Assembly (NCBI GenBank): GCA_030054015.1
Contig: JASGCR010000002.1
Coordinates: 1 to 27,420 of the forward strand
Direction: 5' to 3'
Length of the DNA stretch: 27,420 nucleotides
Origin: Candidatus Symbiobacter sp.
GTDB lineage: Bacteria > Pseudomonadota > Alphaproteobacteria > Elsterales > Elsteraceae
Program-made: the position numbers and the translations under genes
Shown: positions 8,698-27,420 of the stretch, one piece after another
Position numbering within the stretch: the first letter of the stretch is position 1
Layout of the letters: every line of letters starts with the position of its first letter
Notes under the pieces: model-generated
Databases searched by the model: none
What the model was told of the DNA's origin: nothing
The model's input: the letters and a program-made list of their open reading frames with translations, nothing else

Positions 8698-8951
8698 TAC
8701 TCCGAGTCCTTGAAAATTCGCCTTTATGACCCCCCCTTCCTGCTTAGGAAGGGGGGGATAGCTCCGCTTAGGGCGAAGCCCTTAGCGGAGCTAGGGGGGG
8801 TTGGTGATGTTAAGAATCTATTAATATAATCAATATATTACACCAACCCCCCCAAGAAAAGCTACGTCGCCTGCTTCGCAGTCGCCTAGCTTTTCTATCC
8901 CCCCCTTCCTAAGCAGGAAGGGGGGGTCTAAAAGACTTATTCCGACCTTCC
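8698..8951. mobile_element. Composite non-autonomous element: TA-flanked outer terminus + C7/G7 REP-like doublet with IHF consensus + IS5-like TIR
   Basis: TA|TACTCCGAGTCC at 8696; hairpins 8730-8757 and 8899-8926 in inverted orientation; AATCAATATATTA 8828-8840; GACTTATTCCGACCTTCC 8934-8951 then TTAA. Confidence 0.75.
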
Positions 8952-11599: not shown

Positions 11600-12658
11600 T
11601 TACCTGGTACCAGGGCGGTTAAACAGGCTGGCAGTATAGCGGGTTAGGTGGGTCACCGCCGTCTCGGCGGCTAAGATATTTTGGGCTTGGCCGAGCCAAT
11701 CGGCAAAGGCCGGGGCCGCGCTGGCGGGCAGTCGCTGCAATAACGTGACGGCACTCCCCAAACCATCTTGGGTGAGGGCATTGTTGGCGGCGGCCAAAAT
11801 CGCATCGAGCGACTCGCCCGTGGTGCGGTCAATGCGGCGCACCACCACCAAATGCGAGAGCAACCGCATCACGCTTTGCCAAAAACCAGCTTGGCCTTCG
11901 CTCATGTAATTGGCTTTGGCCTCGCGGGCGGCGGCGGGAAAGGCCAAATACAGCGCGATTCGGTGCGGCACCCCGGTGGCGGCCAAGGGCGTTAAGGTCG
12001 CAATCGCTTGATCCGGCAGGGCATTGGCTTGCAGCGAGGTGCCATGCAGCAATCGGATCAGGGACAAAGTTTCGGCAAAGGGCAGCCCCGCTTGGACTTG
12101 GCGCGATAATTCGGCCACCAAAATCGCCAAGGAAGCCGCCCGCGTGGGGGCATCATCGGCGGGACGGGCGCGGTCTTTGGCCAGGCGGTTGACCAAATTG
12201 GTGACGCTGTCCAAACGGGTGGCCAATTGTTGGGTCGCTTCGCTGGCCGTATCCCCCTTGGCGGTGGACACCATCGCCAGGGCTTTTTCGAGTACCGTCA
12301 CCCGCGCCTGTAATTCCTCGATGCGGGCGAGCAGAGATTTTTCATTGGGTTTTTCACTGGGTTTTTCATTGGGTTTTGGTTGGGGCAATAAGGCGGCATT
12401 TTCTGTGGCGGGTTCGGCACCGTCATTGTCACCGACCGATTGACCCGCCAACCAGGGGACACGCCAAGCGGCGAGCAGTTTTGCCACCAAATCGGGCCGC
12501 TGCCAGGCCGTGATGCCGATCCCGGCCGCCAATATGAACAACACGGTCAAGCCAAAGCCCAGATTTTGCCGCCATCCTCGGCGCGACGATTTTATCGCTC
12601 TGGCCGGATTGGGCTGGCTCGAAGGATGGGGCGAAGGAGGGGGCGAAAGATCAGACAC
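11600..12658 (-). CDS. COG4223/mitofilin-like (HemX-position) membrane-anchored coiled-coil protein
   Basis: N-terminal TM, coiled coil, C-terminal GFWQSVMRLLSHLVVVRR..AFADWL pattern; located after hemD; GTG start. Confidence 0.8.
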   Translation of the reverse strand: MSDLSPPPSPHPSSQPNPARAIKSSRRGWRQNLGFGLTVLFILAAGIGITAWQRPDLVAKLLAAWRVPWLAGQSVGDNDGAEPATENAALLPQPKPNEKPSEKPNEKSLLARIEELQARVTVLEKALAMVSTAKGDTASEATQQLATRLDSVTNLVNRLAKDRARPADDAPTRAASLAILVAELSRQVQAGLPFAETLSLIRLLHGTSLQANALPDQAIATLTPLAATGVPHRIALYLAFPAAAREAKANYMSEGQAGFWQSVMRLLSHLVVVRRIDRTTGESLDAILAAANNALTQDGLGSAVTLLQRLPASAAPAFADWLGQAQNILAAETAVTHLTRYTASLFNRPGTR

Positions 12659-12673
12659 GAGAATTTTTCCTTA

Positions 12674-13227
12674 TACTCTGATTCCAAAAGAATCCGCTTT
12701 TAGACCCCCCCTTCCTGCTTAGGGAAAGTCTGAGTAAGTCTAGTTTTACCCCCCCTTCTTTAGAAGGGGGGGATTAGTTTCGCTTAGCTGCGAAGCAGCT
12801 TAGCGAAACTTGGGGGGGTTGGTAATAGTAAAAATCTGATCAGAATCAATATCTTGCACCAACCCCCCCAAGAAAAGCTTTGGCTCGCCTTCGCTCGCCA
12901 AGCTTTTCTATCCCCCCCTTCTAAAGAAGGGGGGGTAAATAAATTTTCGACTTAATCAGACCTTCCTTAGGAAGGGGGGAAACCGAAGCTTGGCAGCTTG
13001 CCGCCTAGCTTCGGTCGGGGGGGTTGGTGATTGCAGAGATTTAATTAGAATCAATGCCATTCACCAACCCCCCCAAGAAAAGCTAAGAATTTTTTTACAA
13101 AAAATTCTAGCTTTTCTATCCCCCCCTTCCTAAGCAGGAAGGGGGGGTCAGAGATTTTTTCGCCTTATTCTATGTTTCCCTAAGCACGAAGGGGATCATA
13201 AAAGTGAATTTTCGAGCACTCGCAGTA
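12674..13227. mobile_element. Nested element stack bounded by TA-flanked imperfect inverted termini, two REP-like doublets inside
   Basis: TA|TACTCTGATTCC left, GCACTCGCAGTA|TA right; doublets 12748-12936 and 12704-12722+12971-13148; orphan IS5-like TIR 13162-13179 followed by CTAA. Confidence 0.75.
12723..12966. mobile_element. 244-bp IS5-like MITE with 4-bp TTAG target site duplication
   Basis: TIRs GGAAAGTCTGAGTAAGTC / GACTTAATCAGACCTTCC (16/18); TTAG at 12719-12722 and 12967-12970; excision restores the hairpin seen intact at 27369-27402. Confidence 0.85.
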
Positions 13228-13264
13228 TAAATCTTATTTTGCCACCGCGATGTGACGCAAAGCC

Positions 13265-14080
13265 TTATCGCGCCAGCGCGGTGGCGGCAATTTCTGCGAC
13301 CAAAGCCGCTTGATTGGGGCGGGCGGCGCAATATTGGGCGGCATAGTCACAACGCGCCGCCGCCGCCACTGCCGGCGACAGAGAAAATAACACCACCCGC
13401 CGCAGGGCGGCCTCTCTGCCCGCTTGGCGCACCAAATTCTCGAACAAAGTCACCGAACGGGACGAAAACATAGCGGTGGCAAAGCACTCGGAACCGCCAT
13501 CGGCCTCGGCAGCCGCCAAAAATTGTTCCAAAGACGGGGGGTAGGCCGTCGCCGCCACCGCATCATAGAGCGGTAACGCACGAAGATCAAACCCAGCCGC
13601 GACCAGGGCCTCGCGCAAAGCCGGCGTGGTGACGCGGCCACAAAGATATTGTATCCATCCGTCTTTGGGGTGCAAATTATTTTGCACCAATTGGGCTAAA
13701 TCGCCACCATGGCCTTTGGCACTATAAATCCGGCGAAAGCCCCAGGGGGATAAATTTGGGGATAAATTTGGGGATAAAACTGGCGATAAAATTTCGGCAG
13801 TGGCATCTCCGACACAAAAAATCGGCAGCCCCCGCAGCCAATGGCGCTGCCCATCCGACCAGGACTTGATCGAATCGCGCATGACCCGCGCGGCATTGGC
13901 CGAACTCAGCATCACGGCCTGGCAGCTCTGAATTTGGCAATTGGTGGGCGCATCCAACTCCCAATGGGCGATGGTTTGGATGGTCATTAAGGGGACGATC
14001 ACCGCCTCATGCCCCATGGCCTGCAGGCTGGTTGCCAGCGATTCAGCATCTTCGCGCGGGCGGGTAATTAATATGCGCAT
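13265..14080 (-). CDS. hemD: Uroporphyrinogen-III synthase
   Basis: MRILITRPREDA, IFCVGDATAE, LYDAVAA, MFSSRS; start reset to ATG 14080, 8 nt after hemC stop. Confidence 0.9.
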   Translation of the reverse strand: MRILITRPREDAESLATSLQAMGHEAVIVPLMTIQTIAHWELDAPTNCQIQSCQAVMLSSANAARVMRDSIKSWSDGQRHWLRGLPIFCVGDATAEILSPVLSPNLSPNLSPWGFRRIYSAKGHGGDLAQLVQNNLHPKDGWIQYLCGRVTTPALREALVAAGFDLRALPLYDAVAATAYPPSLEQFLAAAEADGGSECFATAMFSSRSVTLFENLVRQAGREAALRRVVLFSLSPAVAAAARCDYAAQYCAARPNQAALVAEIAATALAR

Positions 14081-18867: not shown

Positions 18868-19370
18868 AACTTCGCCTTTATGCCCCCCCCTTTCTAAGGA
18901 AGGTCTGATTAAGTCACTTTTTTGCCAAAAGAGACACGCATTTGCGAGCGGCGTAGCCGCGAAGCAATCCAGAAAAATCTAGCAATTTCAGGATGTTACT
19001 GGATTGCTTCGCGGGCGTAAACGCCCGCTCGCAAATGCCATTTCCTGGATTCTGAGACTTATTCGGACATTCCTAAAGGAACCTCTGAATAAGGCGAAAA
19101 AATCTCTGACCCCCCCTTCTTTAGAAGGGGGGGATAGAAAAGCTAGGCGACTGCGAAGCAGGCGACGTAGCTTTTCTTGGGGGGGTTGGTGCAATATATT
19201 GATTCTGATCAGATTTTTACCATCACCAACCCCCCCGACCGATCCTAGGCGGCAAGCCGCCATGGATCGGTTTCCCCCCCTTCCTAAGCAGGAAGGGGGG
19301 GGTCATAAATGTTCCTCGACTTAACCAGACCTTCCCTAAAGAAGGTCTGGTTAAGGCGCAAAGGCGAATC
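18851..19370. mobile_element. Stack of IS5-like mini-elements between ccmE and ccmF (18898-19073 and 19078-19335) plus outer-terminus remnants
   Basis: TIR pair 18898-18915/19056-19073 (15/18) flanked by TAA; pair 19078-19095/19318-19335; back-to-back TIR palindrome 19318-19357. Confidence 0.75.
18938..19038. repeat. REP/RPE-like palindrome (GCATTTGCGAGC..GCAATCC / GGATTGC..GCTCGCAAATGC)
   Basis: 12-bp outer IR; perfect 15-bp IR 18958-18972/18999-19013; side hairpins 18948-18960 and 19011-19028. Confidence 0.8.
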
Positions 19371-26163: not shown

Positions 26164-26216
26164 CCCCCTCTTCCTGCTTAGCGAAGGGGGGACAGTACGA
26201 CTTAATCAGCCCTGCC
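26164..26216. repeat. Degenerate C/G hairpin plus IS5-like TIR between convergent hemA and dgoK
   Basis: CCCCCTCTTCCTGCTTAGCGAAGGGGGG 26164-26191; GACTTAATCAGCCCTGCC 26199-26216. Confidence 0.65.
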
Positions 26217-27334: not shown

Positions 27335-27338
27335 TTTA

Positions 27339-27420
27339 CACTCTGTTTCCAAAAGAATCCGTACGATGACCCCCCCTTCCTGCTTAGGAAGGGGGGGAAA
27401 CCTATCCTTGGCGGCTTGCC
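27339..27420. repeat. Left end of another composite element (outer terminus + intact C7/G7 hairpin), truncated by window edge
   Basis: ACTCTGTTTCCAAAAGAATCCG matches 12675-12696 at 21/22; intact hairpin 27370-27397. Confidence 0.8.

Follow-up and report, generated by a model that had tools for sequence, protein, structure and literature searches.

A MITE with IS5-type ends, 244 bp long, has probably been placed by a transposase acting in trans into one hairpin (hairpin A) of a chimeric host repeat, and the targets that such elements carry within themselves would let copies build up in stacks. The element occupies 12723-12966 of the window, the whole 27,420-nucleotide stretch of Candidatus Symbiobacter sp. 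DNA that was analysed. The genome is a 2.30-Mb MAG from a sponge metagenome (350 contigs, 83.7% complete).

Direct reading of the sequence delimits the element, which is non-coding and has 18-nt inverted ends. No ORF of at least 60 aa lies within it; two such ORFs enter from the 5' flank (87 aa, ending at 12703; 70 aa, ending at 12722). The element and its insertion point comprise the following features:

12704..12718, + strand: 5' arm of the split host hairpin A, with part of its loop (A C7 TTCC TGC); pairs with 12971-12979 after removal of the element
12719..12722, + strand: first copy of the target-site duplication, TTAG (direct sequence reading)
12723..12740, + strand: left terminal inverted repeat, reading GGAAAGTCTGAGTAAGTC; 2 mismatches against the family consensus GGAAGGTCTGAATAAGTC
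12949..12966, − strand: right terminal inverted repeat, reverse complement GGAAGGTCTGATTAAGTC; 1 mismatch against the family consensus
12967..12970, + strand: second copy of the target-site duplication, TTAG (direct sequence reading)
12971..12979, + strand: split host hairpin A, 3' arm (GAA G6, lacking one G); the extra G is present in other metagenome copies
27369..27402, + strand: unoccupied paralogous hairpin A, a related empty site, preceded at about 27337-27368 by a TA-type terminus like that at 12672-12703

The original prediction gave inverted ends that match at 16 of 18 positions and a TTAG on either side, and both were found again on rereading. Removal of 12723-12970 leaves ACCCCCCCTTCCTGC+TTAG+GAAGGGGGG, or A-C7-TTCC-TGC-TTAG-GAA-G6. 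These joined flanks equal the hairpin at 27369-27402 minus one G in the 3' arm, as had also been predicted. The intact hairpin folds as single-stranded DNA into a 12-bp stem with the loop GCTT (-15.6 kcal/mol); TTAG spans the boundary between the loop and the 3' arm, at the centre of the palindrome. The joined flanks have related empty sites at C237, C111, and C91, where the sequence matches at 91.6-94.5% right through the insertion point and TTAG occurs once. The clean duplication, the restorable target, and the three paralogues (91-94.5% identical and uninterrupted at the site) all favour the proposed transposition event. The copy at 12723-12966 thus appears to be a real insertion, with the internal order that the MAG assembly gives it.

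The family consensus is also the commonest end form in the genome, and the exact 18-mer is present in many other species-representative genomes. At eight places in these an inverted copy lies 1169-1214 bp from it, each time with an ORF of 333-347 aa between the two; the hosts are Acidobacteriota, Pseudomonadales, and other MAGs. All eight full-length copies have identical flanks (CTAG, CTAA, TTAA, or TTAG), every one of them Py-T-A-Pu. Four of the eight ORFs contain DUF772 and DDE_Tnp_1 (PF05598, PF01609), and two that were compared with NCBIfam match the equivalog NF033581, "IS5 family transposase," at 318-334 bits. The ends of the 244-bp element are therefore IS5-type, in agreement with the earlier proposal of IS5 ends and YTAR duplication: the same 18-mer bounds IS5-family transposases that duplicate Py-T-A-Pu.

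Much shorter elements share these ends. Those of 130-170 bp occur in other Pseudomonadota MAGs. In an unrelated MAG, Pseudomonadota bacterium P2IB.100, many elements of 128-171 bp have the exact 18-mer (L021, L035, L039, L042, L047, L069, and others), with flanks mostly matching CTAA, TTAG, or CTAG. Short elements with the exact 18-mer in an unrelated MAG suggest that this IS5 lineage has spawned MITEs repeatedly.

A cognate transposase in the same genome had been put forward as a check on the original prediction, and here the search came back empty: in the 83.7%-complete MAG, the PF01609, PF13340, PF05598, and NF033581 profiles detected no IS5-type transposase gene or fragment, and no tblastn hit to any of four transposases taken from cognate-end elements had an E-value below 0.07. 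As candidate autonomous elements, three long pairs of ends (C90, 1829 bp; C315, 2402 bp; C158, 2546 bp) were considered and rejected; they contain long ORFs, none of them a transposase by profile or tblastn. The IS5_4 transposases of five relatives (G005, G007, G017, G021, and G022) have ends unrelated to those of the family. These results apply to an incomplete, repeat-broken assembly rather than to the whole organism, and a multi-copy IS could easily be unassembled, since 68% of contig ends lie in these repeats.

Between its ends the element carries a structured cargo:

12748..12936, + strand: five-hairpin unit, with A at 12749-12772, B at 12776-12810, C at 12809-12872, D at about 12873-12909, and inverted A at 12912-12935

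The five hairpins correspond to inverted repeats I1, I14, I15, I22, and I23. The two A hairpins are complementary to each other at 30 of 30 positions; as single-stranded DNA, the whole unit folds into a long stem that closes three arms (-89 kcal/mol, z = -17). The host repeat at 12704-13149, read without the element, has the same hairpin order (A, B, C, D, inverted A), and in both units hairpin C is long and has G7TTGG/CCAAC7 shoulders. Cargo and host share an 85-nt block at 76% identity.

The cargo-bearing 244-bp form is a multi-copy subfamily. Nine full-length copies stand at different loci with different flanks, at a mean pairwise identity of 86.6% (range 78-92%), and neither A hairpin varies among them. 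C211 begins with a truncated copy that matches the 244-bp-element cargo at 98.4% identity over 125 nt. Copies about 87% alike suggest that the family is either old or driven in trans, and the IS5-ended family as a whole would by now be old or active no more than sporadically. Relatives only 78-88 bp long retain the ends and linkers of the 244-bp form around a single hairpin A; the difference between the 244-bp form and the form of about 81 bp is the 163-bp interval from A to A', most simply explained by a deletion between the two A hairpins. Other IS5-ended subfamilies (131 bp and about 177 bp) have unrelated cargo.

The A hairpins never vary in the aligned 244-bp copies, unlike the B hairpins. 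In B (12776-12810, and the B arms at C337, C43, C70, C241, and C103), a difference between copies in one arm comes with a compensating change in the other, as in TTCG/CGAA against TGAG/CTCA. Template switching in quasi-palindromes or module swapping could produce such changes with no need for selection.

To describe the host, a second type of terminus must be introduced. It starts TATACTCYGTKTCC and ends with its inverse, with TA at both outer ends, and the genome has 177 such termini. Complete TA-flanked elements measure 92-95 bp (one hairpin A) or 262-289 bp (five hairpins), and so mirror the IS5-ended forms; examples are C149 8954-9242, C280 663-925, and C114 10856-10950. A search of the MAG for an IS630-type DDE_3 or other candidate transposase for this type found none. 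Outside the split hairpin A, the host comprises:

12672..12703, + strand: left terminus of the host, of the TA-flanked type, starting TATACTCTGATTCC; aligns with the complete elements C149, C280, C72, and C235
12980..13149, + strand: rest of the host five-hairpin unit, with B' at 12982-13015, C' at 13006-13085, D' at 13076-13117, and an intact inverted A' at 13119-13149
13150..13179, − strand: linker and degenerate IS5-type right end (13162-13179) of the host; 6 mismatches against the consensus end
13180..13194, + strand: CTAA and the 3' half of another hairpin A (GCACGAAGGGG), from repeats I3 and D6; has the form of the right flanks of other hairpin insertions
13195..13229, − strand: TA-type right terminus of the host (...GCAGTATA); complete TA-flanked elements have right termini that align with it

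The hairpins of the unit at 12980-13149 correspond to inverted repeats I4, I11, I12, and I17, and the 3' arm at 12971-12979 to I24. The cargo of the 252/253-bp IS5-ended elements at C237, C111, and C91 matches this unit at 91-94.5% identity, and the linker and right end at 13150-13179 align with those elements column for column. The host at 12672-13229 is thus a chimera of two element types, and the segment at 13180-13194 looks like an old target of its IS5-ended part. The simplest history would begin with a 253-bp IS5-ended element entering the right-hand hairpin of a TA-type one; the two bodies, being homologous, would then recombine, with the loss of one body and the left IS5 end. Entry of the 244-bp element into the left hairpin would be a further event, and may precede or follow the other two.

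The resulting 558-bp composite fills nearly all of the 606-bp spacer (12659-13264) between hemD and a COG4223-like gene. The locus is a minus-strand hemC-hemD-X-hemY cluster in which X is the COG4223-like gene, and the composite lies directly upstream of the start of X. It must either be transcribed through or else supply the promoter of the downstream genes. A known RNA family at 12300-13400 was considered and rejected: the Rfam matches there are sub-threshold and hairpin-driven, the strongest reaching 37 bits where the gathering score is 230.

How general is this arrangement? The end motif occurs nine times in the window (0 expected from 100 shuffles) and at 639-751 end-like sites in the genome, depending on the reference 18-mer; IS5-ended and TA-flanked repeats together make up at least 6.5% of the assembly. 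An IS5-type end or hairpin-A half lies within 300 nt of 477 of the 700 contig ends (68%), and these repeats are the main cause of the fragmentation of the MAG. Iterative removal of elements with perfect target-site duplications yielded 54 first-level excisions and no second level, so nesting was counted from flanks instead.

Among the 746 ends having enough flank to classify, 181 (24%) adjoin the end of another copy over a spacer of 3-5 nt, forming tandem arrays that have the duplication in common, and 168 (22.5%) adjoin the C-run half of a hairpin A; the remaining 397 have other flanks. The hosts of these 168 half-hairpin ends divide almost evenly: an IS5-type end at most 45 nt upstream (55; the hairpin is internal to another copy), a TA-type terminus (58), or neither (55). 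Nests three deep occur, for example at C232 9260/9300 and C195 61. Both strands of the genome hold 35,477 YTAR matches, against which stand 380 intact hairpins; hairpin centres are thus used far above random tetranucleotides. Self-nesting is genome-wide, with a bias towards hairpin centres and the ends of other copies. This accords with the original suggestion of stacks that grow in place: new copies enter the hairpins of older copies or adjoin older copies, in DNA that is already repeat.

The flanks themselves are more mixed. Identical 4-bp flanks bound 38 of 96 end pairs; 5000 shuffles gave 14.4 +/- 3.3 and never more than 28. YTAR accounts for 122 of 192 flanks. The genome-wide tabulation of duplications that had been suggested as a check therefore shows identical flanks well above chance, yet far from every pair has them. 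In short-loop hairpins the duplicated centre is TTTA or TAAA, not Py-T-A-Pu. Among unique-looking flanks, T stands at -7 in 62% (28% in the background) and C at -5 in 57% (24%); this is suggestive of an extended T-N-C/NTAN/G-N-A context, in a sample that may include other repeat families. The same context is present at hairpin centres and at the tandem ...TTCC/4 nt/GGAA... junctions.

These observations suggest a model for growth of the stacks. An IS5-type DDE transposase, supplied in trans, would insert the non-autonomous element into the centre of a GC-rich hairpin A and duplicate TTAG. Hairpin A is a building block of two MITE-like types, and here the left terminal hairpin of the chimera at 12672-13229. 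The incoming MITE brings two more copies of hairpin A, and its ends recreate ...TTCC/4 nt/GGAA... junctions. Each insertion would thereby add preferred targets, and later copies would land inside or beside earlier ones. Choice of site presumably reflects either the extended T-N-C/YTAR/G-N-A context or easily deformed palindromic DNA.

A more ambitious version is tentative, and on balance doubtful: hairpin A may act as a landing pad by resembling the abutted ends of the element, with the transposase drawn to the mimic. The arms of hairpin A end in ...TTCC and GGAA..., which are also the letters at the tips of the inverted repeats, so that the hairpin centre resembles the end/4 nt/end junction of tandem copies. 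Inverted-repeat targeting is known for IS30 and offers an analogue. If correct, this idea would explain the TTTA/TAAA centres, the end-to-end stacks, and the tolerance of about 750 ends in a small genome; the family would both build and carry its own safe havens.

Could the arrangement have arisen by homologous recombination or gene conversion between dispersed repeat copies, with no transposition at the site? The host is clearly recombinant, with a TA-type terminus on the left and an IS5-type end on the right; flanks fail to match in 60% of end pairs; and the B arm and like modules appear to have been swapped among copies. Such exchange does not, however, make a 4-bp direct duplication exactly at 18-nt inverted-repeat ends, nor would it leave a target palindrome that removal of the element restores to the base. 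TTAG...CTAA flank pairs, considered as a general mark of recombination between the two hairpins of one unit, were rejected in that role; reverse-complement flank pairs are not enriched (5 observed, 11 expected). Recombination in place of insertion is therefore improbable at this site.

Less probable again is an assembly artefact, in which a wrong short-read path through near-identical modules makes the insertion a chimeric join. The suspicion has grounds: in the two sponge runs containing the stretch, Logan contigs end at 12726 and begin again at 13141, none bridging the repeat; the order inside 12726-13141 depends on the MAG assembly; much of 12728-13140 consists of 31-mers that are not unique; and more than two thirds of the contig ends of the MAG fall in these repeats, as noted above. 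(Compared over 12000-13700, the Logan contigs, which break at the repeat, gave no joint of an empty allele; their very high summed depth over the repeats does not represent copy number.) At k = 77-99, however, only about 12828-12940 is common with another assembled copy, which makes the MAG assembly plausible. A perfect TTAG duplication and exact restoration of a hairpin are not expected from a wrong join, and independent loci show this architecture as well, among them C211 7917-8137, C233 7807-7983, C174 3106-3190, and C52 9380-9561. Insertion of the MITE remains the preferred reading of the locus.

It remains to place hairpin A itself. The assembly holds 380 intact copies, with two loop types, and hairpin A has one feature of a REP: it is a short, imperfect GC-rich palindrome, high-copy and intergenic. 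The surroundings of the copies tell otherwise. Apart from 17 at contig edges, not one of the 380 is free-standing: an IS5-type end is no more than 60 nt away from 290, a TA-type terminus is close to a further 50, and 23 sit inside five-hairpin units. That the doublet is a REPIN or BIME, moved as single-stranded DNA by a Y1 enzyme (RAYT) and merely captured by IS5-ended elements, is accordingly the least probable reading of all. In its favour, two inverted GC-rich palindromes around a spacer recall REP doublets, the single-stranded fold is extremely good, and the unit occurs with two different kinds of termini. Against it, the incomplete MAG has no match to PF01797 (Y1_Tnp), intact hairpins outside a bounded element or unit are lacking, copies of one subfamily have identical cargo-to-end junctions, and inspection found no conserved GTAG-type 5' tetranucleotide beside the hairpins (flanks read ...TTTATGA-C7, ...GTTTTA-C7, and ...TACTGA-C7).

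The original prediction had called the cargo a copy of the REP doublet of its host. The kinship holds, in that cargo and host have one hairpin order; an independent REP family does not. The doublet is instead the shared body of two MITE-like types, one IS5-ended and one TA-flanked with TATACTC... termini.

Several known systems offer comparisons. IS5 duplicates Py-T-A-Pu, and its hotspots need additional DNA-structural features (PMC5493358). The present family resembles Escherichia coli IS5, the IS5 group (DUF772 and DDE_Tnp_1), and the MITEs derived from it in its GGAAGG ends and 4-bp Py-T-A-Pu duplication. It differs in that the element is non-coding, with a five-hairpin cargo and no cognate transposase in the assembly, and in that TTTA/TAAA is used when it is the centre of a short-loop hairpin.

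IS elements of five families, among them IS5, target REPs (Tobes and Pareja 2006, PMC1525189). As with IS1397/ISKpn1, ISPpu9/ISPpu10, ISRm22, and ISNm1106 (IS5 family), insertion here is into a repeated GC-rich intergenic palindrome, away from genes. Unlike those cases, the inserting element is a MITE, and the palindrome is a module of MITE-like elements that include the inserting family, so that the target multiplies with the element. REP/BIME and REPIN-RAYT systems (PMC3333891, PMC3116915, PMC2817692) likewise consist of high-copy GC-rich intergenic palindromes with inverted pairs around a spacer; the present hairpins depart from them in never being free-standing, in having DDE-type inverted ends with duplications or TA-flanked termini, and in coming from an assembly where a RAYT was sought and not found.

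Nested MITEs are classic in plants, where Tourist and Stowaway form multimers (PMC5172404). The likeness lies in small non-autonomous copies inside one another and in a family sequence that holds its own short target. The present family is, in contrast, bacterial; its enzyme would be IS5-type; its target is the centre of an internal palindrome rather than any TA or TAA; and its tandem arrays have the 4-bp duplication in common. A literature search returned REP-targeting ISs and nested plant MITEs, and no bacterial MITE with its own internal palindrome as preferred target.

Among 30 relatives, only G008 (same family, another genus, fragmented assembly) has both the end and the short-loop hairpin: the hairpin occurs 37 times, and the end in 10 copies of a form with one mismatch. 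One element of G008 (L001:247-476, 230 bp) has IS5-type ends and two adjacent A-like hairpins in a different internal arrangement. The exact junction of end, linker, and hairpin had no match in the other species-representative genomes.

At its plainest, a self-nesting family is a tidy but fairly ordinary version of known transposon behaviour. One genome shows a non-coding transposon family at very high load with little gene damage, with stacks even in a hem operon, and with a preferred target that is at once a self-carried palindrome and a junction recreated by the ends of the family. The repeats explain the poor assembly of MAGs from such sponge-associated bacteria. They counsel caution as well: "REP-like" hairpins may be MITE modules and not a separate class of repeat. 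Finally, the family provides a testable case for target choice by IS5-type transposases beyond the 4-bp consensus.

Other IS5-type ends in the window lie at 148-165, 8934-8951, 18898-19073, 19078-19335, 19340-19357, and 26199-26216. At 18898-19335, elements of 176 bp and 258 bp stand in tandem with TAAA between them; their cargo is unlike that of the 244-bp form.
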